Positions 6,501 to 30,774 of a stretch of 32,000 nucleotides of DNA are shown here, piece after piece. The translations under genes and the position numbers were made by a program. Positions within the stretch are counted from its first letter, which is position 1, and the number at the start of each line of letters is the position of its first letter. Below the pieces are notes generated by a model that saw only the letters and a list, made by a program, of their open reading frames with translations, did not search any database and had not been told where the DNA came from. This stretch comes from Candidatus Methanophagaceae archaeon (GTDB lineage Archaea; Halobacteriota; Syntropharchaeia; Alkanophagales; Methanospirareceae): contig PQXB01000001.1 of assembly GCA_003194425.1 (NCBI GenBank), positions 610,444 to 642,443 on the forward strand, read 5' to 3'.

Positions 6501-9500
6501 ATAATAGATCCTTGCCCAAACAAAAAAGCGTCCAGAGGAAAGTAGCGCGATTAGGGGAGGGCACAGTACCCCATATTGCGTCGATTAAGTCAATCAAAAA
6601 TGGATAAGCACGGTAGATGAATGGAAGGAGCGTTGTAAAGTAAAAGCTAACTCCAGTAGACCATAACCAGGGTAGCCCAGTACTCCCCAACCATGACAGA
6701 CCTGCTAATAAATAGGGTCCGCCAAACCACGCTGTAACAGCTGTAAGCATTGAGATGCCGGTTGCTATTCCCACTCGTGGCCACCAATATTTAGCGTAAT
6801 GCCAATAAGTTTGAGCGAAATCAACAGTCGCTTTCCATGCAGTCTCTGCCGCTTGCTTTACTGCTTTAGCGGCTTGCACGACTTTCTGCTTTACCACTTT
6901 AGCGGCTTGCACGACTTTCTGCTTTACCACTTTAGCGGCTTGCACGACTTTCTGCTTTACCACTTTAGCGGCTTGCACGACTTTCTGCTTCCCCACTTTA
7001 GCCGCTTTCACCACGGGTTTCACATACATTTTTTTGAAAAAGTACTTGTAAGTCTGCCAGAAGTCACTCAACCACCCATGACCAGATGGGTCTATCAGAT
7101 TAACCGGATTGTTGTCTACATAATTATATAAATTACCCGTAACTCTCATCTCGCTAATCAAAGAATCTTTACTCAAGAACCTGCCAACAGTTGCGTCGTA
7201 ATATCGCGCGCGATAAAAATACAACCCCGTCTCCTCGTCCTGCTCTCTACCTGTAAATTTATAAGGGTTTTCTACCGCCTCTCCTGTCTCCGCTAAAATC
7301 TTGCCAAAAGCATCATATTTGTAACTCGCCACAATGTCCCCATTTACATCGGTCAGCGAGGTTACGCTGCCCAAGCCATCGAAGAGATAATAGAAGGTAG
7401 CACCACCTCTGCTTATGCTAACAGGCTTATCCACGCCAGGACTATGCGTGTACCTCGCTTTTTGCGTGCCTGTGGCATCTAATTCCATTAAAATATCCTC
7501 GGGCTCGTAGAAAATATTCTTAAAATCATAGAGATAATTTGTCGTTCCGTCCTTGTCTGTCTTACTCAATCTGTCTCCAAGTGGCGAGTACTGGTAGGTT
7601 ACCTGGCTCGCATCTGGAAGCGTCACCTTTGTCAGTCTGTTCTCGTAATCGTATTCGTAACGCGTGGTGCCGGATGCGTTTACTTTTCTTATTAAATTCC
7701 CGTTGTTGTCATAATTGTAACTCGTTCCACCCGCAGTTAACAACCGGTCGTCTGCGTCGTAAGTATAATAAGTCGTGCCATTAGCATCTTTCTCTGATAA
7801 TCTATTGCCTACAACATCGTAAGTGTATTGAGTGAACCCCTCACCGAGTGGGTAAGTTACTTTAGTTAGCTGGTCTAACGCGTCGTATTCATATCGTGTA
7901 ATCCCCCCATTTGCTTCGGTCTTGGTCAGCCGATTGCCCATATTATCGTAAGTGTAAGCGTAGCTATCGTAAGTGTAAGCGTAGCTTGATTTTTTATTTA
8001 CAGTTACAAGCTCGAGCATTCTTCCCGCAGCGTCATAAGAGCAGTGTGTAGAAATGCCGTTTTGATATTGCGTCCCTACAGTCCTACCAAGTCTGTCATA
8101 TTGATATTTCGTAACTTCGCCTGAGGGGTTCGTGAGTTTAACCTGCCTATTGAGTGCGTCGTATTCATATCTTGTGATCCCTGCATCTGGGTCCTTCATC
8201 CTCACACGGTTGCCATTTGCATCGTAGCCATATTTTATGGTCTTGGAAAATGCACCGTAATCTCGTTTAACAGACGCGAGCCTGTCGAGTTCGTCGTATG
8301 AAAATTTTGTAACATCGTTTAATCCAAGACCGATATTTGATATTTTAAGGATATTTCCAACAGCGTCGTAGTCCCGTACAACTTTACCGCCATTTGGATA
8401 GGATGTGGTGAGAAGCCTATTCAAAGGGTCGTAGGAATAAGTTGAGATATTTCCATTCGCATCGACGCGGGAGATGAGGTTTCCAACCGCGTCATAGGCG
8501 TATTTTGTCTGATAGCCAAGAGGGGAAATGGTCTTTGTAAGCATATCCAGAGCGTCATATTCATATCTTACGACCTGCCCTTTCGCATCCGTGTGACTTA
8601 ACAGATTCCCGTTTGCATCATAAGAGAACCTCGTCTCACTACCCGAAGGATCGCTAATCTTACTCAGCCTATTCAAAGCGTCATATTCGTATTTCGTCGT
8701 GCGTCCGTTCACATTTTGCACCGAACGGAGGTTGGAGACTGCGTCATAAAAATAACTTGTTGCGTGACCCAGAGGGTCTGTTGTTTTTGTTAGTCTATTT
8801 AGTGCGTCGTAATTGTAGGAGGTAAGATTATTGGTCTTGTCTATTATGTGAATCCGATTTCCCACTGCGTCGTAAACATAACTTTCTCTATTTCCAAGAG
8901 CATCGACAACGGATATTAATCTATCCAAAGCGTCGTAGTTCATCCTTGTCTTGTTGCCCTTCGCATCAGTGTATTCAATTAAGTTCCCTTTTTGATCGTA
9001 TTTAAACGAAGTTGTATTCCCGGATGCGTCTGTAACACCCCCGATTTTGCCAATAACATTTGGAGCAGTGGAGGTGCTGTGTCCATTTGCATCGATGGTA
9101 TTTATTAAGGTGCCTTCTGCATTGTATTCATATTTCGTTTCATTTCCAAGTGCGTCTGTCTCTTTAACGAGGTTGTCATTTGCATCGTATTCGTATTTCG
9201 TTCTGCCTCCATTTGCATCGGTCGTACCTATCAATCTACCAACAGCATCATACGAAAATTCTGTAACATTTCCCGTCGCATCTCTGATGTTAATCAAGTA
9301 TCCGTGCGTGTCGTAACCAAAAAAGGTAGTAAAGCCCCTAAAATTTCTTATACTCGTCATATCTCCAAACGAATCATAACTCATAACCGAATAATTCCCA
9401 GTGGCATCTCTTATTTTAATCAAGTTGAAGTCCGTGTCATACTCAAGGTTAGTGGCAAAACCTCGCGCATTTGTAGTTCTTACAAGCAGAGAAATATACT

Positions 9501-10809
9501 TCAGCTCGGTGTCAATGTTGTTCCAGTCATCGCGTCTTGAATTACCTAAAGCGTCTGTTTCTTTGATTAAATTTCCGTAAGCATCGTATTCATAAGAGGT
9601 GGTCGCTCCATTTGCGTCTGTAAAGCTCTCCAAATTCATATCGCTGTCCCACTGCATCGTTGCAACACCGCCTAAGGCGTCGGTGATTTTTATCGGGTTG
9701 CCGTTTGAATTGTGCTCTATTTTTGTTTTATTACCGGATACGTCGATTACATTGGTGACATTATTTGGGGAATATTTGAGTTCATAAATAGGGAAGTTTT
9801 TGATTATAGTGGCTTTCTTGACGATGCCCCCTCCTCTGTCTGAGCGTACTGTTGCGGCTTGGGCTTGGGCTATGTATTCATACGTATATGTAAGCACGAT
9901 ATCTTTACCCAGAAATTTGCCGTCCTCACCGTAGCGAAACATAGTCTCGCTTTCAACACGATCCTCTTTGATATCTTTAGTTTCAACAGGATACAAACGA
10001 TTCTTCTTATCTTTGAGTTTGTGATTATTATAATATTCGTAGAAAGAAGAATTCCCCAGGGCGTCGGTTACTTCAACAAGGTCTGAAGCAGCGTACTCAT
10101 ATTTTATCTCTCTCCCGAGCGGGTCGGCAACGCTGCTAATTTTGCCGTGCAAATCGTAATTAATATTCAAAAACATCCCAGAATCGTCGGAGACGCGCGT
10201 TAGTCTTCCAAGTAAATTATACTCAAAATTCAAATGATTTCCGTTTTTGTCGGCGATGTTATTTATTCTGCCGTTTGAGGCGAAGTTGTACTTTGAGCCG
10301 TCCGTGAACCAGAGAGAGAAAGAGTCGTCAGGATTTTTCGTTAGCTTTGAGTGAATTCCTGGTGGTGCATTGTATTCGCTTCCTCCCGCGGGAGAGAAGG
10401 TGTGTGCAGAGCCGTCTTCGTCAAAGAAGGTTACCGTGCTGTCCTTATTTTTTATGAGATAAAGGTTGTAGTTGTGTGTCCAGCCGAAGCCGAAGGGACC
10501 GTGCTTTCCACTGTTGTGGCTGTTGTAGGACCTGATGATTTCGATCTCGAAGCCACGTGCTGTTATCGAGATGTCCTTTTCTTCGCCGAGGTAAAGGTTG
10601 CCGTTTGCTGTGTTCACAATCCCGCCCGCGGCGTAGTAGTACCAGGGTTCGTAGCCGGTGTTGCCTGTGTTTGGTGGTGCGTTTAAAGATGCACTCCCTG
10701 TTTTGTTCTCCGCCGTCACCGCGCCCGCGAAGAGCGAGCAGAGCATTATCGCGATGAAGAGTAGCGATGTCAGTTTCGTGTTCAGTTCAATCTTTTCATC
10801 TTCCCCCAT
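1..10809 (-). CDS. Giant secreted RHS/YD-repeat protein that continues into a TM cluster, a GATase-like domain and a long Ig-like/PKD/DUF11-like array. The C-terminus lies beyond the window (>=3,603 codons visible).
   Basis: ATG at 10809-10807 with GGAGGG (10816-10821) 6 nt upstream. Codon phase is plus positions 3n+1..3n+3. I reverse-translated more than 25 sixty-nt lines spread over the region (1-60, 601-900, 3661-3960, 4981-5040, 5281-5760, 6001-7260, 10621-10809) and found no in-phase TTA/CTA/TCA. The ORF track lists no closed minus-strand ORF in this phase anywhere in 1-10809. It also omits the other edge-truncated ORF at 31480+, which is what one open frame running off the window predicts. 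The + strand ORFs listed here are low-complexity antisense shadows. Confidence 0.9.
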   Translation of the reverse strand, partial: MGEDEKIELNTKLTSLLFIAIMLCSLFAGAVTAENKTGSASLNAPPNTGNTGYEPWYYYAAGGIVNTANGNLYLGEEKDISITARGFEIEIIRSYNSHNSGKHGPFGFGWTHNYNLYLIKNKDSTVTFFDEDGSAHTFSPAGGSEYNAPPGIHSKLTKNPDDSFSLWFTDGSKYNFASNGRINNIADKNGNHLNFEYNLLGRLTRVSDDSGMFLNINYDLHGKISSVADPLGREIKYEYAASDLVEVTDALGNSSFYEYYNNHKLKDKKNRLYPVETKDIKEDRVESETMFRYGEDGKFLGKDIVLTYTYEYIAQAQAATVRSDRGGGIVKKATIIKNFPIYELKYSPNNVTNVIDVSGNKTKIEHNSNGNPIKITDALGGVATMQWDSDMNLESFTDANGATTSYEYDAYGNLIKETDALGNSRRDDWNNIDTELKYISLLVRTTNARGFATNLEYDTDFNLIKIRDATGNYSVMSYDSFGDMTSIRNFRGFTTFFGYDTHGYLINIRDATGNVTEFSYDAVGRLIGTTDANGGRTKYEYDANDNLVKETDALGNETKYEYNAEGTLINTIDANGHSTSTAPNVIGKIGGVTDASGNTTSFKYDQKGNLIEYTDAKGNKTRMNYDALDRLISVVDALGNRESYVYDAVGNRIHIIDKTNNLTSYNYDALNRLTKTTDPLGHATSYFYDAVSNLRSVQNVNGRTTKYEYDALNRLSKISDPSGSETRFSYDANGNLLSHTDAKGQVVRYEYDALDMLTKTISPLGYQTKYAYDAVGNLISRVDANGNISTYSYDPLNRLLTTSYPNGGKVVRDYDAVGNILKISNIGLGLNDVTKFSYDELDRLASVKRDYGAFSKTIKYGYDANGNRVRMKDPDAGITRYEYDALNRQVKLTNPSGEVTKYQYDRLGRTVGTQYQNGISTHCSYDAAGRMLELVTVNKKSSYAYTYDSYAYTYDNMGNRLTKTEANGGITRYEYDALDQLTKVTYPLGEGFTQYTYDVVGNRLSEKDANGTTYYTYDADDRLLTAGGTSYNYDNNGNLIRKVNASGTTRYEYDYENRLTKVTLPDASQVTYQYSPLGDRLSKTDKDGTTNYLYDFKNIFYEPEDILMELDATGTQKARYTHSPGVDKPVSISRGGATFYYLFDGLGSVTSLTDVNGDIVASYKYDAFGKILAETGEAVENPYKFTGREQDEETGLYFYRARYYDATVGRFLSKDSLISEMRVTGNLYNYVDNNPVNLIDPSGHGWLSDFWQTYKYFFKKMYVKPVVKAAKVGKQKVVQAAKVVKQKVVQAAKVVKQKVVQAAKVVKQKVVQAAKAVKQAAETAWKATVDFAQTYWHYAKYWWPRVGIATGISMLTAVTAWFGGPYLLAGLSWLGSTGLPWLWSTGVSFYFTTLLPFIYRAYPFLIDLIDAIWGTVPSPNRATFLWTLFCLGKDLLFGENEGEDTESVEGFEREEDGETPPGPGNDHPDDNYDVSILSYSPRGAGDGGGSYESESEIAVLSRGFYHEFSDILNEVGESCGFVDVDVSIEELNKHPVFVIPSGGFYGLSSLKSFKSKLEQYVRNGSTLIVLAQQRGYEFDTVPGDLSGYGWLEDQSCHHRSVGISTYHPILSGQDSEISDVNVDGYFTKYSEDATVLLSRTKNGMPAMLMYEYGNGTVIATTIYTDWAYGHHQATADGKHLIRDMVVWAKNPEELPEYGSGDSVDIPINVGSYIDLTADKVKFTVIDPDKNVVDTVNVATTVSPYETRAVNFTDTARSKLGIWHLDYSLANDSVGEVQRVRDTQRFAVSKYAANPDGWVYKGKGISYGVNSKSENYAYGSNGTFTIQLWNHGDTDKTVTCWWSFPHNYWAKHDPIYGSPGTTRPGHRSNLHRTLRVPAHGEASFVYSVPVFSYDRLWADFYEGDETSRTYLGGASRAFYCFRPTLEIKVETGKSEYASGEKVPVLLNFKNRQSVRHNATVTVKVLDPNNKKVFEETLTVNLSAGATENRTLYYTLPAAAEKGIYIVTAEAYEEGGEGGKKIGSDSTYFEVFKSYLVDLSFDNPDKIYRVREDLRLFLKVKNLGAGVWNSTVRTAVPDLAFADARFVEVRPNETEEICYDLNVGNAAAGKHEVFVEIAVDNTTQKDAFFVPESNLELCLGGGRTSYNAGENVCVKISNTGGVDTTFVNCSIKFSDKKGFVIYENDQQGNVSAGETETVSFEIPDQAVNGTYNLLVSCKDNRTGKVSKLSKTCEVAGLKAVLSSVSDKKAYFSDENVTLTTTIANLDGAVVNGTLNLKIYSKSSRQQQREVEGTKAPRPASSSSNTSKIQNQVKEQNVSRLESERGSPPGTAGFGTTGTYIKLGIDSFAHICDYDLYYGLQYPIGNEHLAVGWWGEGFYFGYFVGGTLHDGYSYEDSGVEGLEFVSEEKTEAESEGEYVVVLRDTGGNLELTHDFLLPKSEKYVVLKVSLKNVGSERISGLKYRRVCDWDVDRSPENDFWDYLEETDGKPIMLAWDEHYAALAQSSSTPADRWDADAWGDLVSYDTFIDDADPNGWAFDGCVFFEWEETDLDPGESTTVILYYLLGDSKEEILSLYDAAEAEEGFSKLVWEKDIPVDLLAGDVKDVVTELSVQDDLNDAVGKLDLHATLYNHINSSQVMNSSERYSFFVTDKNTSLTLETDKAVYKPKESVKIFGEVRNNAVLTDDYNLSIKKDGVEIFSDTFTLDPSESYVFTTDTTSKTSFTLEGTVDGVTVTDFVSVEAASINVSIITPDVVGLEDFNVGVLIENIGKIYADLNVRLNSSTTSTWNITVPEGESRLLETTRNITKNTTLKVTISGDVNKTIQKEIIFGENSKINLTPDPIYLEGEVEIPFTINNTGVLDSEFNATFSVSSTERQTITKHFFVPKGGEINGSVSFNLTKGAHLLRYCSPFEEVNVTVNVQSPAEFVVAAVLPAEAERNFTLGENVTLVFCVKNEGGSEGEAELKLSVADFEETNRTWVRAGAEENVSFNFTIPDDLEEKRYKGIYELLDGGGERGEFVYLVQGANISVNASLDKKLYEEGEVAVLRLDVKNNRNMDLSLYSRVKFGEYENTTGFNLTGFASKTLTFNVPANFTGDNKMLYSVYTDSGRALYLNSIYVYEKKAGVPLRLYTEKDVYKMGENVKIEIVDVTRTDELNLTAPGYTFNDTVNGPRTLEFTLPAELRSGTYYVDYAFGNYSSAHPFDVVGFSARILEVSLDKEEYISGEDLELKLKIESNRNVSGGSGGRLRTEIYNAEDELLDEFEQNESLRAGETEIEVSRTLLTGTSGVHAVVYGFYADLNGSGLTALVSGAEYFDAEAGSGEPPVADANGPYTGVVGVPVVFDGTGSYDADGRIESYKWDFDDDGEFDDAVGAKPSKTWDAAYSGVVSLKVMDNDGLTGTDSTNLRIDAPGPPPTKPRIEVTKTVFNETSVEWASESTVRVNETVRFRIWLHNRYENETCNLSNILVKDILSESLTYEAGDATVRYPNGTVAAVEPTVVGKECRWSFPPLELKYCENLSIEFNATVVEEGEDRNTANVSGEFCGESVFAEGAARVSTVPREEAVETATGSGTAYFEVADGRIEDLEAVEEAQLPEEGKPNLDFKH
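600..830 (-). other. PKD domain
   Basis: Translation is ADANGPYTGVVGVPVVFDGTGSYDADGRIESYKWDFDDDGEFDDAVGAKPSKTWDAAYSGVVSLKVMDNDGLTGTDSTNL. This matches the classic PKD signature (SYDxDG..xYxWDFGDG ... V.D..G). Confidence 0.8.
850..5700 (-). other. Array of Ig-like beta-sandwich (CARDB/MG-like) modules, interrupted by an unassigned W/Y/G-rich domain at about 3200-3850 and an S/Q-rich linker at about 3850-3960
   Basis: A recurrent pattern of the type LEIKVETGKSEYASGEKVPVLLNFKNRQSV..TVTVKVLDPNNK..LSAGATENRTL was read in several spot translations. Module boundaries are not resolved. Confidence 0.5.
5740..6320 (-). other. Alpha/beta domain resembling a class-I glutamine-amidotransferase-like / ThuA-like fold
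   Basis: Translation is ..HPVFVIPSGGFYGLSSLKSFKSKLEQYVRNGSTLIVLAQQRGYEFDTVPGDLSGYGWLEDQSCHHRSVGI..GNGTVIATTIYTDWAYGHH..MVVWAK. The resemblance is from memory of the family pattern, not from a search. Confidence 0.3.
6500..6790 (-). other. Trp/Gly-rich hydrophobic cluster (about 3 predicted TM helices) directly after the repeat
   Basis: Translation is ..YWWPRVGIATGISMLTAVTAWFGGPYLLAGLSWLGSTGLPWLWSTGVSFYFTTLLPFIYRAYPFLIDLIDAIWG..FLWTLFCLG. The TM call is by eye only. Confidence 0.5.
6865..6996 (-). repeat. 33-bp tandem repeat x4 (three perfect copies and one variant) inside the giant ORF, encoding (KQKVVQAAKVV)n
   Basis: Unit tttagcggcttgcacgactttctgctttaccac occurs at 6865-6897, 6898-6930 and 6931-6963. 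A variant copy lies at 6964-6996, with a degenerate tail to about 7017. The repeat is in phase with the ORF. Confidence 0.95.
7078..10660 (-). other. RHS/YD-repeat shell plus RHS repeat-associated core domain
   Basis: Dozens of YD units were read directly (..TKYEYDANDNLVKETDALGNETKYEYNAEG.., ..RYEYDALDQLTKVTYPLGEG..). The N-terminal RHS lead-in is present (..RSYNSHNSGKHGPFGFGWTHNYN..). The core end is KFTGREQDEETGLYFYRARYYDATVGRFLSKDS..NLYNYVDNNPVNLIDPSGH (7078-7260), with DPSG at 7081-7092. Confidence 0.9.
7944..7985 (-). repeat. Perfect 21-bp tandem duplication inside a YD repeat (SYAYTYD x2)
   Basis: tatcgtaagtgtaagcgtagc occurs at 7944-7964 and again at 7965-7985. Confidence 0.95.
10711..10809 (-). 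other. N-terminal signal peptide / membrane anchor of the giant protein
   Basis: Translation is MGEDEKIELNTKLTSLLFIAIMLCSLFAGAVTA|ENKTG: a charged n-region, a ~20-aa hydrophobic core and an A-x-A-like VTA site. Confidence 0.7.
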
Positions 10810-11233
10810 TTTTATCCCTCCTTCTTCTTTTTCTTCACGATTTTATTCTACTTTTGAATTACTGCATTTAGGAGAAGGGGGTAATATAAATTTTTCTGTT
10901 TTTTCAGATATAAAATCACACATCCCCTTCGTTTTCCCCCTCTTCCTATCCCTCTTCCTCCCCTTCTTCCCCTTTTTTAGCCCTCTCTGCCCTGATTTTA
11001 TCTGTATTTGAATTAATAAGAATTAAAATATGAGGGTTAATATAAGGTTTTCGATGGGGAGTAAATAAACCTTTCGATTTTTTTGTACTGAAATATAAAT
11101 CTTTTGGACGCCTCTTCTCTCCCTCACGATTTTTCTCCCTCTTGCTTTTTTTACTTTTTACTTTTCTCTAAAATGTAAATTTGTGAGTATTTAAAAGCTT
11201 TAAAGTTCAGAAGAAAAGAAGAACGACCAACCG
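10810..11233. promoter_or_regulatory. 424-bp AT-rich divergent intergenic region between the giant gene and the RND exporter gene
   Basis: No credible ORF. Several TATA-like strings are present (tttatatt on the minus strand near 10875-10890; atttaaaa near 11189). Long pyrimidine tracts lie at about 10921-10985 and 11100-11170. Confidence 0.4.
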
Positions 11234-13468
11234 ATGATTCAACGAGTCCTTAACAGGTGGGCGGAGATTTCGAAGCGCTACTACGCGGTGATTATTTTGG
11301 TCGCGGTTGTTGTCGGTGCCGTCTCGTTTGTGAGTGCGAGCGAGACCGAGATTTCTACAAAATACTTCGGCTTCTTCTACCCCGAGACGAATTATATGGA
11401 AGAGATTCGGTTCATTCAGTCCGAGTTTCCGGGGACGCAGACCGCCCAGATTTTAATCGCCGTGGACAGAATTAACGCAAGGAGCGTGCTTGAGCCAGAC
11501 CTGCTCGAAATGAGAGCGGACTTGGTAGAGGCGGTCTCCGATGTTGCGGGGGTGAAGAGCGTTGAGAGCGTGCTCGACCTCGGAGGGACGAAAAATGAAA
11601 TTCTTTCAAGACCGAGCGAGCAGCGCAGTCCGTTCGTTGACGAGAAGTTGCGGCACTCTCTCGTCACCGTGAAGTTGGACGCAACCGAGATTCCAGATAG
11701 CAGGGAATTAGTAGAGACCTTTCAGAAGACGATAAAAAAGGTGGACGAGGTGCGAGGTTCGTCGGTTACGCTAACGGGCCAAATTGCGTGGGGCTACGCG
11801 TGGGACCGGGCGATAAGAAGTGGATTTTCAAGGTCGCTCCTCGTCGGGTTCGTAGCGATTTTCATCCTCCTCTTTCTGCTCTTCAAAAGCCCGACGACGC
11901 CGTTTGTCGTTCTCTTTCCGGTGCTGGTTGCGGTGCTTGCGAGCTTCGGGCTGATGCATTTCATCCAAATCCCGCTCAACTTCTTGACCGCGATGTTCGG
12001 CGCCGTAACGCTCGGGCTCGGCGTTGACTACGCTATTCATTTAGTTCACCGGCTACCACGAAGAGTCGGCGCGGGGAGGGCAGTAGCAGGGGGAAACAAC
12101 GAGCGGGCGTTGAACATTGCGTGTATGAAAATTGGGCGAAACACGCTCGTTACGAGTTTGACGACGATGGCTGCGTTCTCTTCGATGGCTCTTTCGCCGA
12201 TTCGGATGCTTGGGGAGTACGGAATAATGTCCTTCATCGCAATCTCGTTCTCCGCACTCTCGGTCTTCCTCTTTGTCCCTTCCCTGCTCGTGCTTGAAGA
12301 GAAAATCGGGTGGGGTGTGAGAGGAGGGAGAAGGACGTTGGACTTTTCGGGGCTCGCGCGGTTGCTCGGCACCGAGCGGCTCATTTCACGAACGATGGAA
12401 CGCGTGGCGGATTTTTCGCTGAAACGCTCGGTCGGTGCGGTTCTTATCATCGGGCTCACGCTACTCCCGATTCTTGCGGGCGTGGGAATGATTGAAAGCA
12501 GGAGCGAGCAGGAGATGTGGATTCCGGAGGGCGACCCGCTGATGGTGGCGTGGCGGGTCGTGGACGAGGAATTCTGCGATTACGAGTACTCCACGATTCT
12601 GGTGCGGGCGGACGACATAAGAACGCCGGAGATGATGAAAGCGCTGGCGGAGGTTGAAGCGAGCGTTCGGGAGGTGCCGGGGGTTGTAGCGTTGTCTTCT
12701 TGAGGGAGAAGGAGGAGGCGAGATTCGTGCGGAGAAGAGGGAGATTGAGAGGCGGATTGCGGCGATTCCCGCGGACTTGCGAGAGAGTTTTGTTACGAAC
12801 GACTACACGGCAGCGCTGATTATCATAAAAGCCGACGAAGAGATTGAAGAGAAGCAGGTGCGGGAGATTGACGATGCGATTCTCTTTGTAGAGACGCCAG
12901 GCGACGCCAGTTTCAGGCACGCGAGCTTTTCTACGCTCTTTTCCCAGATGGACAGAATGATGGAAGAGAGTCAGGCGAAGACGACCGGGGTAAGCCTCGT
13001 TTTAGTCTTTGCGATTCTGTTCTCGTTTTTCAGAACCCCCTTTCGGATAATTCTCGCGTTTGCACCCGTCCTGTTCGCGATAATTTACGCTCTCGGCACA
13101 ATGGGGCTCGTCGGAATTCCGTTTACGCCGCTCACGGTGATGATAATGACGATTCTAATCGGGCTTGGAACCGACTACTCGGTCCATTTCGTCTCACGCT
13201 ACCGAGAGGAGCGGGCGAAGGGGTTTGAGACGCAGGCGGCGCTGCAGACGACGACGCTGACCGTGGGTTCGGCGATTCTGACGGCGTCGCTCTGACGACG
13301 CTCTTCGGCTTTTTGGCGCTTACCACGATGTCGCTCGTGCCTGTGCAGGACTTCGGCAGGATTGCAGCGGTGGGGCTCGTTTACGCTGCGTTCTTAACGC
13401 CTGTCGTCGTCTCGCTCGGGATTCTTGCGCAGGAGCGGGTGGCTCAGGCTCTAAAACGAAGATTTTGA
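11234..13468 (+). pseudogene. RND-superfamily (MMPL/COG1033-type) exporter, split into three frame segments
   Basis: Piece 1 is 11234-12703 (phase 2), piece 2 is open from 12690 to 13295 (phase 0), and piece 3 is 13295-13468 (phase 2). Both halves carry the family motif (GLGVDYAIHLVHR.. and GLGTDYSVHFVSRYREE..). Read-through is colinear: ..VPGVVALSS / LLEGEGGGEIRAEK.. and ..GSAILTASL / TTLFGFLALTTMS... Confidence 0.7.
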
Positions 13469-23863: not shown

Positions 23864-23946
23864 GGGAAGGAAAAGAAAAGAAAAAGAAGGAAAAGGAAAG
23901 AGAAAGAAGGGAAAAAAGAGGAAGGAAAAGAAGGGAAGGGAAAAAA
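23864..23946 (+). repeat. 83-nt uninterrupted polypurine (A/G only) tract filling the rpl7ae-rps28e spacer
   Basis: Read base by base: no C or T from 23864 to the A of the rps28e ATG at 23946. Confidence 0.95.
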
Positions 23947-24161
23947 TGAGCGAAGAGAGGGGGACGCCCGCAGAGGTGGTTGAAATTGTGGGCAGGACAG
24001 GAATGCACGGCGAATCAACGCAGATAAAATGCAAACTTCTGGCGGGGCAGAATCGAGGACGTGTTATAACTCGGAATTGCAGAGGTCCTGTAAAGACTGG
24101 CGATGTAATTGTGCTGCTGGAGACGGCGAGGGAAGTGAGGAAATTAATGAGGCGGAGGTGA
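23946..24161 (+). CDS. rps28e: Ribosomal protein S28e
   Basis: MSEERGTPAEVVEIVGRTGMHGESTQIKCKLLAGQNRGRVITRNCRGPVKTGDVIVLLETAREVRKL. The track start at 23751 is rejected because it reads through the polypurine tract. Confidence 0.9.
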   Translation: MSEERGTPAEVVEIVGRTGMHGESTQIKCKLLAGQNRGRVITRNCRGPVKTGDVIVLLETAREVRKLMRRR

Positions 24162-24221
24162 AGAGGGGGTAAGGAAGAGGTAAAGCAGGGGCAAGGAAAG
24201 GACAAAAGAGAGGACAAAAAA

Positions 24222-24422
24222 ATGGGAAAGAAATGCTCGTTTTGTGAGTCGCAGATTGAGCCTGGAACGGGGAAGATGTTTGTGAGGCGGGACGGGACGG
24301 TCTTTTATTTCTGCAGTTCCAAGTGCGAGCGGAATATGATAAAGCTAGGTAGGAAGAGAAGGAAGGTGAAGTGGGCAGCGAGCGAGGGTGTTGGTGCAGG
24401 TGCAGGAGGGGGTGCAAAATAG
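24222..24422 (+). CDS. rpl24e: Ribosomal protein L24e
   Basis: [51 protein letters not shown]. Confidence 0.9.
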
Positions 24423-24428
24423 AAAATA

Positions 24429-24836
24429 ATGGTAAAAGAGCGAACATTTTTGATGATTAAACCGGAGGGAGTGGAGCAGGGGCTTGTCGGCGAGATAATC
24501 GGCAGATTTGAGCGGCGGGGCTTTCGGGTGGTTGCACTCAAACTCTCAACGCTGGGCAGGGAGTTGGCGGAGAAGCAGTACGAGGAGCATCGCGGAAAGG
24601 AGTTCTTTGAGGACTTGGTTGCTTACATTTGCTCTGCTCCGACGGTTTCGGTGGTCGTTGAAGGAGAGAACGCGGTTGCGACGGCGAGGGAAATGGTGGG
24701 TGCTACGGACCCGAAACTTGCAGCCCCGGGAACCGTGCGCGGCGACTACGGGTTGGACGTGCAGCGAAACACGATTCACGCCTCGGACTCAGAAGCGTCG
24801 GCGAAGCGCGAAATTTCTCTGCATTTCGGATTATGA
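24429..24836 (+). CDS. ndk: Nucleoside diphosphate kinase
   Basis: [12 protein letters not shown].., ..[18 protein letters not shown].., NTIHASDS (catalytic His). Confidence 0.95.
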
Positions 24837-26554
24837 AAAAAAAATCTCTGTTGGTTGTTTTACTGCTGCTGGTGGCGGTGCTGGTGGCGACACTGCAGGC
24901 GCAGACAGCGGGAGCGAGCTACTCCTTCGACGGCACGCCTTACGCAGACAAGTTGGACTTGGTGGCTCACGGGAATTTTAACGGCGGCGTCTACGTCGGC
25001 GAGAGCCACAAACTCGCAGACCCTCCTTTTACGCAAACCTTCGCAGTGCCTGAAAATGTCAGGGTCAAGTGGGCGAGGCTGTACGTGGGCGTTTGGGGCG
25101 GCACAGAGCGGTACGAGGGCTGGGTGCAGACGACTCTCAACGGGCAGGACCTCGGTAAGACGGCTCTCCGCGGCGTAAACGACGAGAACCCGAATGTTTA
25201 CTGCTCGGGACACGGCGTCTACTGGGTCTTCTACGACGGAGTAGCAAAAAAAGTAAAGGCAGGGCTTAACACCGCCACCGCGACCACAAGTAGGGGCGAA
25301 CGCGGAAACCAACTCGACGGCAGAATTTACAGCATTATTCTCGTGGCAGTCTACGAAAACGGAGACGGGGGTGCGAACGCAAAAGCACCCGAGATTTCGT
25401 TCTGGGTCGCAGACGGGAACGCGAACCTGCACGGTCAGGGCTGGACAGGAAAGTTAGCCACGACAAACGACTTCGCTTCGGTGCAGTTTGACGGTTCGGT
25501 TGAGCCTGCGAACGTGGCGGCTGCGAACCTTACGGTCGTCTACCTCGCTGGCAACCCCGGCGAACCCGACTACCTGGAATTCAACGGGCAGGACCTCGGC
25601 GGCGGGGAAGAGGTGGCGAACTGCGGGGACGGCGAGACCTACGGAATTGACCTCAAGACCTTTGAAGTTACAAAATTTCTGCAGGCGACGGAGAACCGCC
25701 TTCTTTTCCTACGCGGAAAGGACACTAACCACGACGGCAAAATAGACACGGACGACGAGGGACAGCAGGAGGGCGAGCACTACCTCCACCCTGTCCTTGC
25801 AGTCCTCGTTGCACGGCACGAGAGCACCGAGAAAGTCTTGCCTGACCTCTCGGTTCGGCTTGAGCAGGAGGGAGAAGAGGGGCAGGAGAGAGAAGAGAGA
25901 GGAAACCTGACCGAGGGCGAGAACACGCTCACCGCAGTCGTAACAAACTACGGCAGGTCTTTTGAGGGCGATTTTCTGCTGAAAGTCTCTGCAGACGAGT
26001 CAGAAATTTACTCGCAGGTTCTTCAAATGGACTACAGCGGCATTAAAAAACAGCCGCTGCGCTGGAACGCGACGCACGGCACGCACACCCTCAAAGCAGA
26101 GGTCACAGCCGACTCTGGAGGGAAGAGCGAAGTGCAGCGGGAATTTTTTGTTCTGAGTAGCTCTGACCTCTCTGTTCGGATTTTAACGCCCGTGCCTGCG
26201 AAAGGGGGAGAAGCAGAGGAAAAGGCAGAGAAGACCCTCAAGACCCAGCTCTTACAGCGGTTGCTCGATTTCTTGCTCGGCAAGAGTGAGCAGGCAGAAG
26301 CCGAGTCGGAGTTGGTAAAATATTCGGTTCCAGTGGAGGTAAAGAACGAAGGAGAAGCGGCAGCACGGAACTTCAAACTCGCTCTTTACTTGGACGGCGA
26401 GAAGACCAAGACCAAAAAGATTGAGTGGTTAGAAGGCGGCGAGTCGGCTACTGAAGAGTTCTCAATTGTGGTGGCGGAAGGTAAGCACCACGTTCGTGCA
26501 GTGGTAGACGAGGAGGGGAGGGTTAAAGAAAATGAAATCTCGTTCGATTTTTAG
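24833..26554 (+). CDS. Secreted protein of unknown function (DUF3344-like N-domain) with two C-terminal CARDB-like domains
   Basis: Signal peptide is [28 protein letters not shown]. The ..[13 protein letters not shown].. motif resembles archaeal DUF3344 (name from memory). CARDB-like segments include ..[20 protein letters not shown].. and ..[24 protein letters not shown]... The ATG overlaps the ndk stop (ATGA). Confidence 0.8.
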
Positions 26555-27632
26555 CGGCTTTGTTTTTGCACTAATTCTCGCAGTCACAGCGTCGGTGGCA
26601 GTAGTAGTAGCAGTGGCAGTAGCAGTGGCAGGGGCTTCGTACGCAGGCGACAAACCGCTTGCTACTGTCTCGCACGGCGAAGTTTGCGGCGGCGTCTTCT
26701 TTACTCTCGGCGACAGCAAGTACAGCGGGCGAATGAATTTCAACGACTCCTACACCGTCAATTTTGAAACCAGCACGCTGGGGAGTGAAGGAGGGAAGGA
26801 AGGAGGGAAGGAAGGAGGGAAGGAGGGAGGTAAAAAAGTGAAATTAGCACGGCTCTACGTTTACTGGGTCTGGAGCCAGAACGAGAATGTAGGCGTCTAC
26901 CCAAAAATGCAGGTGCTGGCTTCGGCAGGGAAGCGAGGGAAGGCACTGAATTTGGATTTGGACGCGACTTACACAGACACCAAAGGGTTCGTCGGAAAAT
27001 ACGACTACTTCTCGGGCGTTAACGTTTACAACTGCGACCTAAACCTAAACACGACGAGTCTGAATGTTGTGGTAAAAAATGAGGACGCGAACGGAAGCAC
27101 TTTCTGCGTGCAGGGAGTCGGGCTGCTGGTGGTTTACGAGTGTCAGGGGGGAGAGGGAGGAGGGGAGGTCTGTGGCGGTCCGAACTGTCAGAGAATTGAG
27201 TACTGGGTGAACGAGGGCTGCGACATGATTTTCGCGGAGTACGGAATTACACCAGAAATGGCGACCACCAAGATTTATTTTGACGGTGAGTTGGACTTGA
27301 AGGAGGTGAAGCAGGCGTTCCTAACGACAGTCGTCCCCTCGGGCGGTTACATCTCTGGCGGGGCGACTTCGCACAACCGACTTTACTTCAACGACGAAGA
27401 GGGCTGGCTCAGCAGCCTGCCACTCTTAAAACAGCTGCTCAGGCTCTTGCTCGGCTACGGCGGCGGGGCTTGGAGCGACGTTTACCACTCGGACAACACC
27501 GTCCAAATTGGGCTTGACCAGCGTGAGGTTACCGACTACCTAAAAGTCTCGAACAACTTCGCCGCGGTTCAGGACAACCGCGATTATATGATGGTAACGA
27601 ATGCGGTGTTGGTTGTGGAGAAAGTTGTTTAG
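26532..27632 (+). CDS. Secreted/anchored paralogue of the preceding protein (DUF3344-like)
   Basis: N-terminal hydrophobic segment is ..FVFALILAVTASVAVVVAVAVAVAGASY. It shares motifs with its neighbour: GASY, VKLARLYVYWVW vs [20 protein letters not shown] vs ILVAVYEN, and IEYWVNEG vs ISFWVADG. The start lies 23 nt inside the upstream ORF, after GAGGGGAGGG. Confidence 0.8.
   Translation: MKSRSIFSGFVFALILAVTASVAVVVAVAVAVAGASYAGDKPLATVSHGEVCGGVFFTLGDSKYSGRMNFNDSYTVNFETSTLGSEGGKEGGKEGGKEGGKKVKLARLYVYWVWSQNENVGVYPKMQVLASAGKRGKALNLDLDATYTDTKGFVGKYDYFSGVNVYNCDLNLNTTSLNVVVKNEDANGSTFCVQGVGLLVVYECQGGEGGGEVCGGPNCQRIEYWVNEGCDMIFAEYGITPEMATTKIYFDGELDLKEVKQAFLTTVVPSGGYISGGATSHNRLYFNDEEGWLSSLPLLKQLLRLLLGYGGGAWSDVYHSDNTVQIGLDQREVTDYLKVSNNFAAVQDNRDYMMVTNAVLVVEKVV
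26787..26834 (+). repeat. 12-bp tandem repeat x4 (gaaggagggaag) encoding (EGGK)4
   Basis: Three perfect copies at 26787-26822 and a variant at 26823-26834. Confidence 0.9.
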
Positions 27633-27648
27633 ATTAAGAAAGGAGAAT

Positions 27649-29043
27649 ATGCTAAAAAAAGAAAATAGTCTGGTCTTCGGTGGCGTGAATGTGTTAGAAC
27701 TGGTGGAGCGGTACGGCACGCCTCTTTATGTCACCGACGAGAGAAAGTTGAGAGCGAATTTTAGGGGCTACAAAACCGCTTTTGAGACCGCCGAGACTGA
27801 GATTTACTACGCTGTGAAGGCGAACGGGAATCTTGCGATTCTGCGAATTTTGGCGAGCGAGGGTGCGGGCGCGGACGTCTTCTCGGTCGGCGAACTCCAG
27901 CTCACGAAATTGGCGGGCGTGCCTGCGGAGAAGGTGCTGTTCAACGGTAACTCGAAGAGCGAGTCGGACTTGAGAGCTGCGGTTGAGGCGGGCGTGAAGG
28001 TGTCTGTGGATTCGGTAGACGAGTTGCGGGCTTTGTCAAGGGTGGCGAGCGAAGAGGGGGAGGGGCGAGAGAAGGACGAAGAGGGGCGAGAGAAGGACGA
28101 AGAGGGGCGAGAGAAGGACGAAGTAGGACAAGAGAGGGGGGTGGAGGTTGCGGTGCGTGTGAACCCAGACGTCTCGCCGGAGGTGCATCCAAAAATAGCG
28201 ACAGGTCTTAAGACCTCGAAGTTCGGAGTTCCGTTCTACGAGGCGGTCTCGGTCTGCGAGGAGGCGAGGAGGCTGCCCGGGATTTCGCTTGCAGGAATTC
28301 ACTGCCACATCGGCTCGCAAATTCTTGATGTGAGCGTCTTCCGAGAGGCGGCGGAAAAGATGCTGACACTCGTTGCAGGACTGCACGAACGCGGAATTGA
28401 ACTCAAATTCGTGGACCTCGGCGGCGGGCTTGGAATTTCACACCGGCACGAGGAAGGAGAGGTAGCACCCACGCCGAGAGACCTTGCAGGAGCGATTTTG
28501 CCGGTCTTTGAGAAAACAAATTTGAAACTCATTCTTGAGCCTGGCAGGTCGCTCGTGGGTGCGACTACAATTCTGCTGAGCAGGGTCAACGCAGTCAAGC
28601 GAGCCTACAAAAATTTCGTGGCGATCGACGCAGGGTTTAATTTGTTTATGCGACCTGTGCTGTACGACGCCTACCACGAGGTTGTGGTCGCGAACAAGGT
28701 AAACGAGCGTCGAGGTTTGGGTGGTTCGGAGGGTGGTTCGGAGGGTGGTTCGAAGGGTGGTTCGGAGGGTGGTTCGGAGTCCGAGATTTACACGGTGGTT
28801 GGGCCTGTCTGCGAGTCGGGAGACATAATTGCGAGGGACAGGAGGCTTCCGAAAGTGGAGCGGGGGGATTTGGTTGCGATTTTGGACGCAGGTGCTTACG
28901 GGTTCTCGATGAGTTCGCAGTACAACGGCAGACCGCGGTGTGCAGAAGTGCTGGTCTGCGACGGAGAGGCGGATTTGACAAGGTCGCGGGAGAGCGTTGA
29001 GGATTTGGTAAGGCGTCAGGAGATTCCCGCGAGGCTGTTGTGA
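27649..29043 (+). CDS. lysA: Diaminopimelate decarboxylase
   Basis: ..YGTPLYVTDE.., YAVKANGNLAILR (PLP Lys), ..HCHIGSQI.., ..EPGRSLVG.., ..GPVCESGD.., ..GAYGFSMSSQYNGRP... ATG 27649 follows AGGAG (27641-27645). The track start at 27601 is rejected. Confidence 0.9.
   Translation: MLKKENSLVFGGVNVLELVERYGTPLYVTDERKLRANFRGYKTAFETAETEIYYAVKANGNLAILRILASEGAGADVFSVGELQLTKLAGVPAEKVLFNGNSKSESDLRAAVEAGVKVSVDSVDELRALSRVASEEGEGREKDEEGREKDEEGREKDEVGQERGVEVAVRVNPDVSPEVHPKIATGLKTSKFGVPFYEAVSVCEEARRLPGISLAGIHCHIGSQILDVSVFREAAEKMLTLVAGLHERGIELKFVDLGGGLGISHRHEEGEVAPTPRDLAGAILPVFEKTNLKLILEPGRSLVGATTILLSRVNAVKRAYKNFVAIDAGFNLFMRPVLYDAYHEVVVANKVNERRGLGGSEGGSEGGSKGGSEGGSESEIYTVVGPVCESGDIIARDRRLPKVERGDLVAILDAGAYGFSMSSQYNGRPRCAEVLVCDGEADLTRSRESVEDLVRRQEIPARLL
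28060..28122 (+). repeat. Perfect 21-bp tandem repeat x3 (gaggggcgagagaaggacgaa) encoding (EGREKDE)3 inside lysA
   Basis: Copies at 28060-28080, 28081-28101 and 28102-28122. Confidence 0.95.
28720..28779 (+). repeat. 12-bp tandem repeat x5 (ggtggttcggag, one copy with a G>A change) encoding (GGSE)5 inside lysA
   Basis: Copies at 28720, 28732, 28744 (variant), 28756 and 28768. Confidence 0.95.
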
Positions 29044-29078
29044 CTTTTATTTATTCAAAAACGCCCTATTTTAACGAG

Positions 29079-30647
29079 ATGAAAATGAGAACGAGGTCGT
29101 TGTGTCCGGAGTGTCTCGAAGTAGTAGACGCCGAAGTTTACGAAGCAGAGAGCGAGGGCAGGAGCAAAATACTGATAAAAAAGCGGTGCGAGAAGCACGG
29201 CGAGTTTGAGGACGTTTACTGGTCTGACGCAGAGTTGTACCGCAAATTCGCGAAGTGGCGGTACGAGGGCAACGGTGCAGGACTCACGCTCACGAAGACG
29301 ACGGAGAATGGCTGCCCCTTTGACTGCGGTCTCTGCCCGGAGCACAAGAGTTCGACGATGCTCGCGATCATTGACCTCACGAACAGGTGCAACCAGCGCT
29401 GCCCGACCTGTTTTGCGAACGCCGCGGCTGCAGGCTACCTCTACGAGCCGACGGTTCCGCAGTTGCGTGAAATGATGGAACTGCTGCGGAGCGAGACGCC
29501 ACCCTGTCCTGCGGTTCAGTTTGCGGGCGGCGAGCCGACGATTCGGGAGGGGTTTGTGGAGATTGTGCGGCTGGCACGAGAGGTAGGGTTCGCACACGTT
29601 CAAGTCGCGACGAACGGAATTGCGTTGGCGAAGAGCGAGCAGTTCTGCCGCCGCCTGCGAGAAGCTGGGCTGCACACGGTTTATTTGCAGTTCGACGGCG
29701 TTACCGAGGAGCCGTACCGGGTGCTGCGTGGAATTCCAGCGTTGAAGACGAAGTTGCGGGCGATTGAGAACTGCAGGCGGGGCGGGCTAAATAGTGTTGT
29801 GCTTGTTCCGACGCTTGTGCGGGGCGTGAACGACGGTCAGGTTGGGGATTTGGTGCGGTTTGCGGCGAAGAACTTGGATGCTGTGAAGGGCGTGAACGTG
29901 CAGCCTGTCGCGTTTGAGGGCAGGGTCGAGGCGGGCGAGAGGAAGGAGCGGCGAATTACAATTCCTGATTTTATAAACCTGCTGGAAGAGCAGACAGGCG
30001 GCGAAATTCCGCGTGAGAGCTTCTACCCCGTCCCTTTCGTTGTTCCTGTCTCGCGTTTTGTGGAGGCGTGGAAGGGCGTGCCGCAGTTGGAACTCTCGGT
30101 TCACCCGCACTGCGGTGCAGCGACTTACGTCTTCGTTGAGGACGGGCGGTTCAAGCCGATAACCGAGTTCCTGGATGTTGAGGGTTTTATGGAATTCCTG
30201 AAAGAAAGAGCGGACGAGATGAGCAGCAGCGGGTCGAAGGTGAGCAAATCAGGAGTGGACAAATCAAGAGTGGACAAATCAAGAGTGGACAAATCAAGAG
30301 AGGGCAAATCAAGAGTGGGTAAAATAAAAGCAGTGGCAGGGCTGGTCTCGGCGTTAAGGAAATTTGTGGACAAGGCGAAGATGCCAGAGGGCGTTGACCC
30401 TTTAGGTCTGCTTGCAGGTGTGCTGAAAATAGGGAGTCGGGAGGCTCTTGCAGAGTTTCACCGCAAAGCCCTCTTCATCGGTGCAATGCACTTTCAGGAC
30501 GCCTACAACTTCGACTTGGAGCGTGTCAAGCGCTGTGGAATCCACTACGCCACGCCCGACCGCCGAATAATTCCGTTCTGCTCTTACAACGCAATTCACC
30601 GACCCGCAGTGGAGAAGGCTTTTTCTGTGCCTTTAAACTTTAAATAA
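29079..30647 (+). CDS. Radical SAM enzyme with an N-terminal Cys-rich ribbon (COG1964-type; resembles the tetraether-lipid/macrocyclic-archaeol synthase Tes/GDGT-MAS family)
   Basis: SLCPECLEVV..RCEKHGEF, GCPFDCGLCPEH, and the radical SAM motif NRCNQRCPTCF (CxxxCxxC). The specific Tes assignment is from memory of the family architecture. The start is ATG 29079 or 29085. Confidence 0.7.
   Translation: MKMRTRSLCPECLEVVDAEVYEAESEGRSKILIKKRCEKHGEFEDVYWSDAELYRKFAKWRYEGNGAGLTLTKTTENGCPFDCGLCPEHKSSTMLAIIDLTNRCNQRCPTCFANAAAAGYLYEPTVPQLREMMELLRSETPPCPAVQFAGGEPTIREGFVEIVRLAREVGFAHVQVATNGIALAKSEQFCRRLREAGLHTVYLQFDGVTEEPYRVLRGIPALKTKLRAIENCRRGGLNSVVLVPTLVRGVNDGQVGDLVRFAAKNLDAVKGVNVQPVAFEGRVEAGERKERRITIPDFINLLEEQTGGEIPRESFYPVPFVVPVSRFVEAWKGVPQLELSVHPHCGAATYVFVEDGRFKPITEFLDVEGFMEFLKERADEMSSSGSKVSKSGVDKSRVDKSRVDKSREGKSRVGKIKAVAGLVSALRKFVDKAKMPEGVDPLGLLAGVLKIGSREALAEFHRKALFIGAMHFQDAYNFDLERVKRCGIHYATPDRRIIPFCSYNAIHRPAVEKAFSVPLNFK
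30244..30318 (+). repeat. 15-bp tandem repeat x5 (caaatcaagagtgga; two perfect copies and three variants) encoding (KSRVD)n in the radical SAM enzyme
   Basis: Units at 30244, 30259, 30274, 30289 and 30304. Confidence 0.9.
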
Positions 30648-30720
30648 AAGAAGAGCGAAAGTAAAAATGCCCTTTTCGAAGAGTAGCGTGACTTGGTGAA
30701 CGCGAACGGCGAACGCGACG

Positions 30721-30774
30721 ACGAACGCGAGCGACGAACCGCGAACGACGAACGCGAGCGACGAACCGCGAACG
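30721..30774 (+). repeat. Perfect 27-bp tandem repeat x2 (acgaacgcgagcgacgaaccgcgaacg), with a degenerate third copy upstream (30698-30720), in an intergenic region
   Basis: Copies at 30721-30747 and 30748-30774. Confidence 0.9.

Follow-up and report, generated by a model that had tools for sequence, protein, structure and literature searches.

The window analysed here is a stretch of 32,000 nucleotides from contig PQXB01000001.1 (assembly GCA_003194425.1, positions 610,444 to 642,443, forward strand) of a Candidatus Methanophagaceae archaeon belonging to the ANME-1 group of anaerobic methanotrophic archaea. There are short tandem repeats throughout this window, both inside and between genes, and their density reaches a level that so far has been described only for Borgs, whereas here the repeats reside in a chromosome and within everyday enzymes. 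The rate at which repeats arise in this species, or the degree to which they are tolerated, is far above that of its sequenced relatives. We consider it probable that whole repeat units are gained and lost by a slippage-type process at purine-rich seed sequences, that this process is raised in the species, and that its products are filtered for reading frame within genes.

The repeats were called by Tandem Repeats Finder (TRF) and then read unit by unit. All ten repeats listed in an earlier note on this DNA were found at the positions given there, and the list proved to be incomplete. Two of the listed arrays are located in a giant open reading frame (ORF) on the minus strand. One has a 33-nucleotide unit in 4.8 copies (KQKVVQAAKVV; 6854-7011, TRF score 274, perfect core 6864-6990), and the other is a perfect 21-nucleotide duplication (SYAYTYD SYAYTYD; 7944-7986) in the part of the ORF that carries YD repeats. 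On the plus strand, there are arrays in the genes for a cupin (9 nucleotides, 2.2 copies, SVSSVS; 16198-16217), TatD (12 nucleotides, 2.4 copies, GSGSGSGS; 17862-17890), the second of two DUF3344 paralogues (an all-purine 12-nucleotide unit, 3.7 copies, EGGK; 26787-26830), diaminopimelate decarboxylase LysA (a perfect 21-nucleotide unit, 3.05 copies, EGREKDE; 28060-28123, and a 12-nucleotide unit, 5.1 copies, GGSE/GGSK; 28719-28779) and the radical SAM tetraether lipid synthase Tes (15 nucleotides, 4.9 copies, KSRVD/KSRVG; 30245-30318). The longest run of units is found on the minus strand in a kinase-like gene, where a 9-nucleotide unit encoding (E/K)AG is present in 15.3 copies (22976-23112; 137 nucleotides with 85% matches and a perfect 27-nucleotide higher-order unit). 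The last listed repeat, between tes and the thioredoxin gene (30698-30777), can be read as 3.0 copies of 27 nucleotides or six copies of 13.

Missing from the list were a second TatD array on the plus strand (6 nucleotides, 3.3 copies, VEVEVEGEGA; 18130-18149, following the motif ETDAPYLSP), an array on the minus strand in the archaeosine synthase gene arcS (9 nucleotides, 2.8 copies; 21468-21493), two intergenic sites, and a 12-nucleotide unit encoding (RGQG)n on the plus strand in DP1, the small subunit of DNA polymerase PolD (31882-31917). The intergenic sites are a 9-nucleotide array between the kinase and L7Ae genes (23381-23403) and a tract of 90 nucleotides, 98% purine, between the L7Ae and S28e genes (23866-23955). 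The cupin repeat is correctly located in the earlier note, yet it is the weakest item at 20 nucleotides. Its orthologues are just two residues shorter at this site, and it was set aside as a marginal case rather than a clear insertion.

There are five other conspecific assemblies that can be compared with the window, at substitution identities of about 98.7-99.7%. L088 aligns with positions 1-10799 with 29 mismatches and four indels (3, 15, 33 and 33 bp), all of which are in the giant ORF and are multiples of three. L081 aligns with 19572-32000 with 10 indels, each of them located in an array, and 80 mismatches. L082, a close strain recovered from a JGI metagenome as ANME-1 cluster archaeon ex4572_4, aligns with 20125-32000 with 55 mismatches and 12 indels. 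The remaining two are L084 (11002-19253; 105 mismatches, 13 indels) and L087 (12441-15810; seven mismatches and two indels, both of 2 bp). Nearly all of the length differences between these assemblies are whole repeat units, in agreement with the proposal that the repeats are evolutionarily young.

The 33-nucleotide array of the giant ORF has two units fewer in L088 (two 33-bp gaps in sequence that is 99.7% identical). In L081 there are unit changes in ArcS (15 bp), the kinase (9 bp), LysA (21 bp), intergenic DNA (27 bp) and DP1 (36 bp), together with further intergenic changes of 31, 9, 5, 4 and 6 bp. The unit indels in L082 measure 21, 30 (two Tes units), 27, 9 and 24 bp. The 15-bp indel at 21486 in ArcS is common to L081 and L082, and the ArcS proteins of the species cluster have lengths of 600, 603 and 605 amino acids. 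Both strains have 9-bp unit indels in the kinase array and lack one 27-bp unit of the intergenic array at 30698. The intergenic site at 23381 has 31 or 37 extra base pairs in other strains. The purine tract at 23866-23955 carries four indels in L081 and two in L082, of 4-11 bp, and no other spot is as prone to indels between strains. It lies directly upstream of the start codon of S28e (23946) and extends over it.

Protein clusters extend these observations. Tes has three, four or five units among 15 conspecific proteins that form one cluster at 90% identity, and LysA has two or three EGREKDE units in its 90%-identity cluster, where other strains have two and the window has three. An E/K substitution separates strains in the GGSE array of LysA. 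The TatD array at 18130 shows a 6-bp indel in L084, and an allele with 10 additional amino acids, GEGAGEGAGEDEGT, is present among the population variants. For the (RGQG)n array of DP1, the window carries the shortest allele (about two units), to which L082 adds 24 bp and L081 adds 36 bp. A second DP1 array, (GGSSN)n, lies just past the window and has four units in L081 and six in L082. At the other extreme, all conspecific strains share the GSGSGSGS segment of TatD, apart from a single S-to-T variant, and no copy variation was seen for the cupin repeat in L084.

Copy numbers that differ between near-identical strains indicate that the making of repeats is real and ongoing and is not an artefact. 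Misassembly, chimeric contigs or sequencing errors could in principle create repeats or differences in copy number, and some details are of the kind expected from such errors. The kinase array approaches the length of reads and k-mers, some Logan contigs end near arrays, and L082 has an odd in-frame loss in LysA. This loss removes window positions 28597-28770, amounting to 174 bp or 58 codons of the LysA core, and ends in the GGSE array. The resulting protein of 399 amino acids (L082 positions 7576-8775) lacks conserved residues, and no obvious microhomology is found at the junction in L082. Either a collapse during assembly or an allele that has been inactivated may be the explanation. Against a general artefact, most arrays span 30-80 nucleotides, well under read length, and they are present in at least six independent assemblies (ENA, JGI, NCBI and Logan). 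The same alleles recur across contigs with linked substitutions, and three Logan contigs (L083, L085 and L086; SRR6664617, SRR6664622) match the window with 100% identity along 2-7 kb. We therefore regard an artefactual origin as highly improbable.

The number of repeats also greatly exceeds chance. There are 17 perfect repeats (at least two copies and at least 18 nucleotides) in the window, compared with 0.27 in block shuffles and 3.6 in codon shuffles, three of the latter being intergenic repeats that codon shuffling leaves untouched. The background for comparison with relatives consists of 80 ArcS-centred loci on short-read contigs, of which 41 are from other ANME-1 species (L001-L041) and the rest from Methanoperedens and Methanothrix (L042-L080). 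With the criterion established for Borgs (perfect repeats of at least three units and at least 50 nucleotides; Schoelmerich et al. 2023, PLoS Biol, PMC9879509), repeats occupy 0.597% of the window, none of the sequence from other ANME-1 species (518 kb) and 0.009% of the Methanoperedens and Methanothrix loci (588 kb). The published share is 0.62% for Borgs and at most 0.01% for Methanoperedens (PMC9879509), and thus the likeness to Borgs that had been noticed from the sequence holds quantitatively. Perfect repeats of at least 30 nucleotides occur 2.5 times per 10 kb in the window, and 5.5 and 4.3 times in conspecifics L081 and L082, respectively, versus 0.10 in the other ANME-1 species and 0.05 in the Methanoperedens and Methanothrix loci.

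Shorter perfect repeats (at least 18 nucleotides) show a related gradient among the comparison loci, with 1.12 per 10 kb in other ANME-1 species versus 0.29 in Methanoperedens and Methanothrix, a difference of about fourfold. Six such repeats are found in one 5-kb contig (L028, from ANME-1-LC). Perhaps a milder tendency to form repeats is general in ANME-1.

The conspecific sequence covered amounts to about 39 kb, and all of it is within or adjoins the window. This leaves room for a local explanation, in which the high density is confined to a neighbourhood of about 40 kb, such as the surroundings of an origin or terminus or a recombination hotspot, and is not a property of the genome. Strong arrays are fewer in the 11-20 kb part of the window than in the 22-32 kb part, and L084 lacks any perfect repeat of at least 30 nucleotides within 9 kb. 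Nevertheless, arrays span the full 32 kb, affect genes on both strands, and continue beyond the right end of the window. L082 extends 7 kb past this point and includes eight further perfect arrays, found in DP1 ((RGQG)n and (GGSSN)6), UppS ((QPV)3), a thiolase (S8) and a NifH-like or CfbC-type protein ((AGG)4 and (SERS)3). Moreover, neither an origin-like feature nor a switch in skew distinguishes the repeat-rich part. A purely local hotspot therefore seems unlikely.

A second characteristic of the arrays is their relationship to reading frame. All nine of the strong genic arrays (TRF score of at least 50) have units that are multiples of three (binomial p = 5e-5), and the same is true for 22 of 26 genic and 5 of 11 intergenic entries among all non-redundant TRF rows. 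The claim that unit length is always a multiple of three is thus correct inside ORFs and incorrect between genes, where units of 7, 10, 22 and 29 nucleotides occur. Length differences between strains follow the same rule. Within intact genes, the 12 distinct changes are all multiples of three, compared with about half of those in intergenic regions, where indels of 31, 37, 11, 5 and 4 bp are observed. The exceptions in genes are 1- and 2-bp indels in an MMPL transporter gene that is already split and a 1-bp indel where the cupin and formyltransferase (FTR) genes overlap. Arrays are about six times denser per kilobase in non-coding DNA, which makes up about 6% of the window. Because intergenic units and indels are often not multiples of three, the preservation of frame in genes is best understood as a selective filter acting on a process that is itself blind to frame. 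This agrees with the earlier proposal of an active repeat process under selection for frame.

The arrays also share a distinctive composition. On the coding strand, genic arrays contain G 43%, A 33%, C 13% and T 11% (76% purine), whereas genes overall contain A 26%, G 31%, C 21% and T 22% (57% purine). Two arrays are purely homopurine, and intergenic arrays are likewise rich in purines or pyrimidines. The most common encoded residues are G (20%), K (16%), E (14%), A (13%) and S (10%), with V also among them. In addition, the 33-, 15- and 12-nucleotide arrays have identical central units and degenerate edge units, an arrangement that is typical of slippage or unequal exchange.

These features suggest a mechanism in which short direct repeats of 6-33 nucleotides undergo continual turnover, growing and shrinking by whole units. 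The most economical candidate for the molecular step is slipped-strand misalignment in the course of replication or repair, with short purine-rich stretches of the existing sequence as seeds. Such a process would be indifferent to frame and would also affect intergenic DNA, where units could have any length. In genes, purifying selection would remove variants that break the frame and those at structurally intolerant places. The survivors would be in-frame arrays in permissive loops, encoding G/K/E/A/S-rich and probably flexible peptide repeats within conserved enzymes, and most of these arrays would be near-neutral. A biochemical precedent exists, since the archaeal polymerases PolB and PolD (from P. 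abyssi) undergo slippage at direct repeats in vitro, an activity that is held back by PCNA (Castillo-Lizardo et al. 2014, PMC4134008).

Homologues were used to establish where the arrays have been placed. On the basis of sequence alignment, the arrays in LysA, Tes, TatD and the kinase are lineage-specific insertions, and that in the DUF3344 protein probably is as well, as it falls within a 21-amino-acid gap relative to the first paralogue (24833-26554). The GSGSGSGS segment of TatD is an insertion of eight amino acids that is absent from five ANME-1 orthologues (71-73% identity), and the (E/K)AG array of the kinase is an insertion of 38 amino acids that is absent from twelve. Both LysA arrays are absent from all other homologues (about 119), and the expanded Tes array is absent from a similar number (about 119). 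Thus, the check by orthologue alignment that had been proposed for this DNA argues against ancestral linkers. Perfect peptide repeats of at least three copies were not found in 119 LysA, 119 Tes or 82 cupin homologues, apart from a trivial MKMKMKMK start in a Tes protein. In all other ANME-1 Tes proteins, a single KSR[IV]GK takes the place of the three to five KSRV[D/G] units found in this species, and the Tes array therefore grew from a native seed.

The EGREKDE and GGSE insertions of LysA map between residues 147/149 and 336/340 of PDB 2p3e, respectively. In an AlphaFold2 model of LysA (77-sequence alignment; mean predicted local distance difference test (pLDDT) score of 75), which is the only protein of the set that was modelled, both arrays are predicted to form coil between secondary-structure elements. 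The EGREKDE array is placed between a helix (123-138) and a strand (165-172) with pLDDT values of 46-54, and the GGSE array has values of 31-41. In LysA proteins of other ANME-1, the loop that holds the GGSE array contains unrelated insertions that are not repetitive, which indicates that it is a permissive loop. At alignment column ~433, these insertions (in P0020, P0022, P0031, P0046 and P0076) include EDGHGHGH, a Pro-rich segment of 27 amino acids and ELSKLSEDKHELAVDS. Array-encoded peptides are probably flexible. The generalization that all of them are charged or Gly/Ser-rich and disordered fits the low-confidence coil of LysA and does not extend to KQKVVQAAKVV and SYAYTYD of the giant ORF, whose units look helical or beta.

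Likewise, the expectation that the insertions occupy surface loops is right with regard to loops, but not all of these loops are remote from the active site. The first TatD insertion directly follows the metal-binding His strand (VVLHLR), at a gap relative to PDB 6l25. The second, also of eight amino acids relative to PDB 6l25, comes after the ETDAPYLSP motif. In DP1, the (GGSSN)n array is found within the phosphodiesterase (proofreading) domain, in a tight turn that corresponds to residues 405/407 of PDB 6knb.

Several arrays adjoin catalytic motifs instead of occupying arbitrary loops, which raises the possibility that the peptides are adaptive. Perhaps slippage merely supplies variation, while positive selection keeps and tunes the arrays for solubility, interaction, regulation, or adaptation to temperature or pressure. 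The strong compositional bias described above and the fixation of some arrays in all conspecific strains (for example GSGSGSGS of TatD) are compatible with this possibility, and selection on amino acid tandem repeats (aaTRs) has been argued for Borgs (PMC9879509). However, the hosts are unrelated cytoplasmic enzymes that have no common need, the changes between units and between strains are non-conservative (E/K, D/G), and the variation in copy number among near-identical strains follows no visible pattern. Arrays are even denser in intergenic DNA. The intergenic arrays share the purine bias, and so this bias looks mutational. Given these varied hosts, non-conservative unit differences and the higher intergenic density, we favour a mainly mutational origin. 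It is unlikely that adaptation accounts for the arrays as a group, and an adaptive role is possible for some of them.

Several points weigh against the preferred interpretation of frame-filtered slippage that is raised in this species. Unequal recombination or template switching would leave the same pattern as slippage. Folding of eight arrays as DNA gave no more structure than shuffled sequences (z >= -1.35, with several at 0 kcal/mol). Hairpin-driven slippage was accordingly rejected, and the hairpin-dependent slippage seen in vitro is not obviously the route used. Some arrays are fixed in the species and are not demonstrably unstable (the GSGSGSGS segment, the 21-nucleotide duplication of the giant ORF, which is unchanged in L088, and the EGGK array, which shows no unit indel in L081 or L082). 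The insertions beside catalytic motifs in TatD and DP1 do not resemble pure tolerance in harmless loops. With regard to density, the genome-wide extent is an extrapolation from about 39 kb, in which the window might have been picked for its repeat richness, and the share obtained with the Borg criterion stands on two regions (6864-6990 and 28060-28123). In addition, the comparators are short-read contigs of metagenome-assembled genomes (MAGs), yet the conspecific short-read contigs retain their arrays.

The replicon that carries the arrays is the cellular chromosome of one ANME-1 (Methanophagaceae) species and not a mobile element. This is evident from its ANME-1 orthologues and conserved synteny, its genes for ribosomal proteins, FTR and DP1, the presence of coding sequences on both strands, a G+C content of 51.5%, and a contig of 1.19 Mb. 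The closest relatives of ArcS (54-69% identity), obtained by a scan of genome contigs that brought up no conspecific genome, are from Methanophagales/ANME-1 MAGs, and the gene order TatD-ArcS-kinase is common to other ANME-1. Proteins of the window correspond to NCBI entries PXF51411-PXF51919, assigned to Candidatus Methanophagaceae archaeon on a contig of 1,187,124 bp. We presume that this species is the ANME-1 archaeon of Guaymas Basin enrichment cultures. With ArcS, TatD, LysA, Tes, FTR, ribosomal proteins, NDK and DP1 all encoded here, the description of the hosts as core housekeeping genes of a cellular, higher-GC replicon is borne out.

One alternative is that repeat-bearing genes were imported from a Borg-like or viral element. 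The density does equal the Borg average, and foreign insertion does occur in this region. A DUF4276 and AAA_21 gene pair situated between tatD and arcS corresponds to HEC-01, a candidate defence system in PADLOC (HEC-01A, 533 bits; HEC-01B, 232 bits). It looks like an inserted island because it has no counterpart at any of the 80 ArcS loci that represent other species. The genes that host repeats, in contrast, are ANME-1 orthologues with 60-79% identity to those of other ANME-1 and the same neighbours. They lie on both strands with ribosomal protein genes and DP1 interspersed, their G+C content differs from the ~33% of Borgs, and the Tes repeat extends native sequence. Their best hits suggest that these genes would be placed inside ANME-1 in a phylogeny. 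An imported origin is thus highly unlikely.

The gene map is based on six-frame analysis together with Pfam and NCBIfam scans. The giant ORF (1-10842, minus strand) encodes an RHS/YD-repeat protein of more than 3,614 amino acids that runs off the left window end and includes DUF6531, MG2 and PKD domains. There are 17 RHS/YD matches, with DUF6531 near the N-terminus and an RHS core match at residues 1150-1185, followed by about 2,400 amino acids with MG2 and PKD domains. RHS proteins do not usually have such an architecture. The region upstream of this ORF differs between strains, as L084 does not align left of position 11002. Next is the MMPL transporter gene (11234-13295), split into two ORFs of 489 and 172 amino acids. 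It is called in two to three pieces in L084 and L087, which differ by indels of 1 and 2 bp at positions 12052 and 13292, and could be either a decaying pseudogene or the product of homopolymer sequencing errors.

These are followed by genes for PaREP1 (13492-13911, minus strand), two methyltransferases (14288-15836), the cupin (16086-16532), formylmethanofuran:tetrahydromethanopterin (H4MPT) formyltransferase, or FTR (16516-17463), TatD (17456-18301), the DUF4276 and AAA_21 pair (18313-20100, minus strand), ArcS (20141-21943, minus strand) and the APH-family kinase-like protein (21940-23343, minus strand). Ribosomal proteins L7Ae (23488-23856), S28e (23946-24161) and L24e are encoded together with NDK within 23488-24836, and the two secreted DUF3344 paralogues occupy 24833-27632, with the second at 26532-27632. 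LysA (27649-29043; TIGR01048) has its start at Met17 of a 480-amino-acid ORF, and the 464-amino-acid form is NCBI PXF51423.1. Tes (29085-30647) matches NF045702 with 681 bits versus a cut-off of 450. The window ends with thioredoxin (30925-31374) and the N-terminus of DP1, which begins at 31480 and continues off the right end (NF003118, 493 bits for the full-length L082 copy). There are no Rfam families and no tRNAs within the window, and thus no such match marks the intergenic arrays as non-coding RNA.

The presence of DP1 among the hosts invites speculation about cause. Two of the most variable arrays are in this proofreading subunit, which is notable, although they are possibly only a consequence of the process. 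One could suppose that the species is in a genome-wide, Borg-level repeat-generating state caused by its own replication and repair machinery and not by a mobile element. PolD would then be one candidate, given the two hypervariable peptide repeats of DP1, one of which is in the phosphodiesterase domain. We hold this proposal to be unlikely. If it were true, Borg-like repeat formation would be a property that a cellular replisome can acquire. If the presumed Guaymas identity holds as well, the species would provide a model, accessible to experiments, of how repeats form in Borgs, for which there is as yet no explanation.

Dense and rapidly changing perfect repeats that give proteins flexible segments had been put forward as a hallmark of Borgs, and several implications follow from finding these arrays in a chromosome. 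The repeat process does not require a Borg, and metagenome binning cannot rely on repeat density alone to mark Borg-like elements. The core functions affected include lysine synthesis, membrane-lipid synthesis, tRNA modification and DNA replication. Differences in protein length among MAGs of this species are real alleles, and the arrays are ready markers for strain typing. The natural series of three, four and five units offers a population in which the rates and fitness effects of in-frame repeat gain could be measured. A search of the accessible literature revealed no report linking ANME-1 chromosomes with tandem repeats.

Among known systems, the closest resemblance is to the tandem repeats and aaTRs of Borgs (PMC9879509). 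In both cases, the repeats are perfect or nearly so, are arranged head to tail, constitute about 0.6% of the sequence, and are found in and between genes. Unit lengths in genes are multiples of three and those between genes mostly are not, unit number varies between close relatives, and homologues lack the arrays. The units are T-poor and purine-rich with degenerate flanking copies. Borg aaTRs are intrinsically disordered regions, and the LysA peptides, which are predicted to form coil, are probably disordered as well. The ends of window-identical Logan contigs, at 16096 (inside a 12-nucleotide repeat, 16078-16100) and 18111 (19 nucleotides before the TatD array at 18130), recall the remark in the same paper that repeats terminate contigs. 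There are also clear differences. Such repeats were reported to be virtually absent from cellular (Methanoperedens) genomes (PMC9879509). Borgs are linear extrachromosomal elements of Methanoperedens with terminal inverted repeats and one coding strand per replichore, and their G+C content is far below that of this ANME-1 chromosome. G exceeds A in the arrays described here, whereas Borg units are enriched in A. The ANME-1 arrays are shorter, with two to five units and one array of 15. Finally, Borg repeats are enriched in extracellular and membrane proteins, whereas the hosts in this case are mainly cytoplasmic core enzymes (LysA, Tes, TatD, ArcS and DP1), with two of about nine being of a secreted type (RHS and DUF3344).

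The slippage of PolB and PolD in vitro (PMC4134008) demonstrates a biochemical route in archaea, but it needs a hairpin between the direct repeats that is absent here. A further parallel is provided by phase-variable contingency loci, which share an instability in repeat number of the slippage type, and some of the arrays (23381, 23866 and 30698) have a comparable intergenic or promoter location. However, contingency loci break the frame or alter promoter spacing, whereas genic unit changes in the intact genes of this species all keep the frame. The arrays differ from contingency loci because frames are never switched, and no turning of genes on or off is seen.

There is also a likeness to the coding variable-number tandem repeats (VNTRs), or minisatellites, that are used in multiple-locus VNTR analysis (MLVA) for typing bacteria. 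These too display in-frame turnover of units, homogenized central units and polymorphism at the species level. As in VNTRs, the alleles seen here differ by whole units (33+33, 21, 30 as 2 x 15, 27, 9, and 36 or 24 bp of a 12-nucleotide unit). Bacterial VNTRs usually number a handful per genome and mostly affect surface or hypothetical proteins, whereas in this species there is about one array per 1-4 kb, located in housekeeping enzymes. Low-complexity inserts of Plasmodium and other eukaryotes are AT-rich, rich in Asn and Lys, mostly cryptic or degenerate, and regarded as largely neutral. Like these inserts, the ANME-1 arrays are lineage-specific, compositionally biased, apparently slippage-derived, and situated in loops of conserved enzymes. 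Unlike them, the units in ANME-1 have kept identical DNA sequences and are polymorphic.

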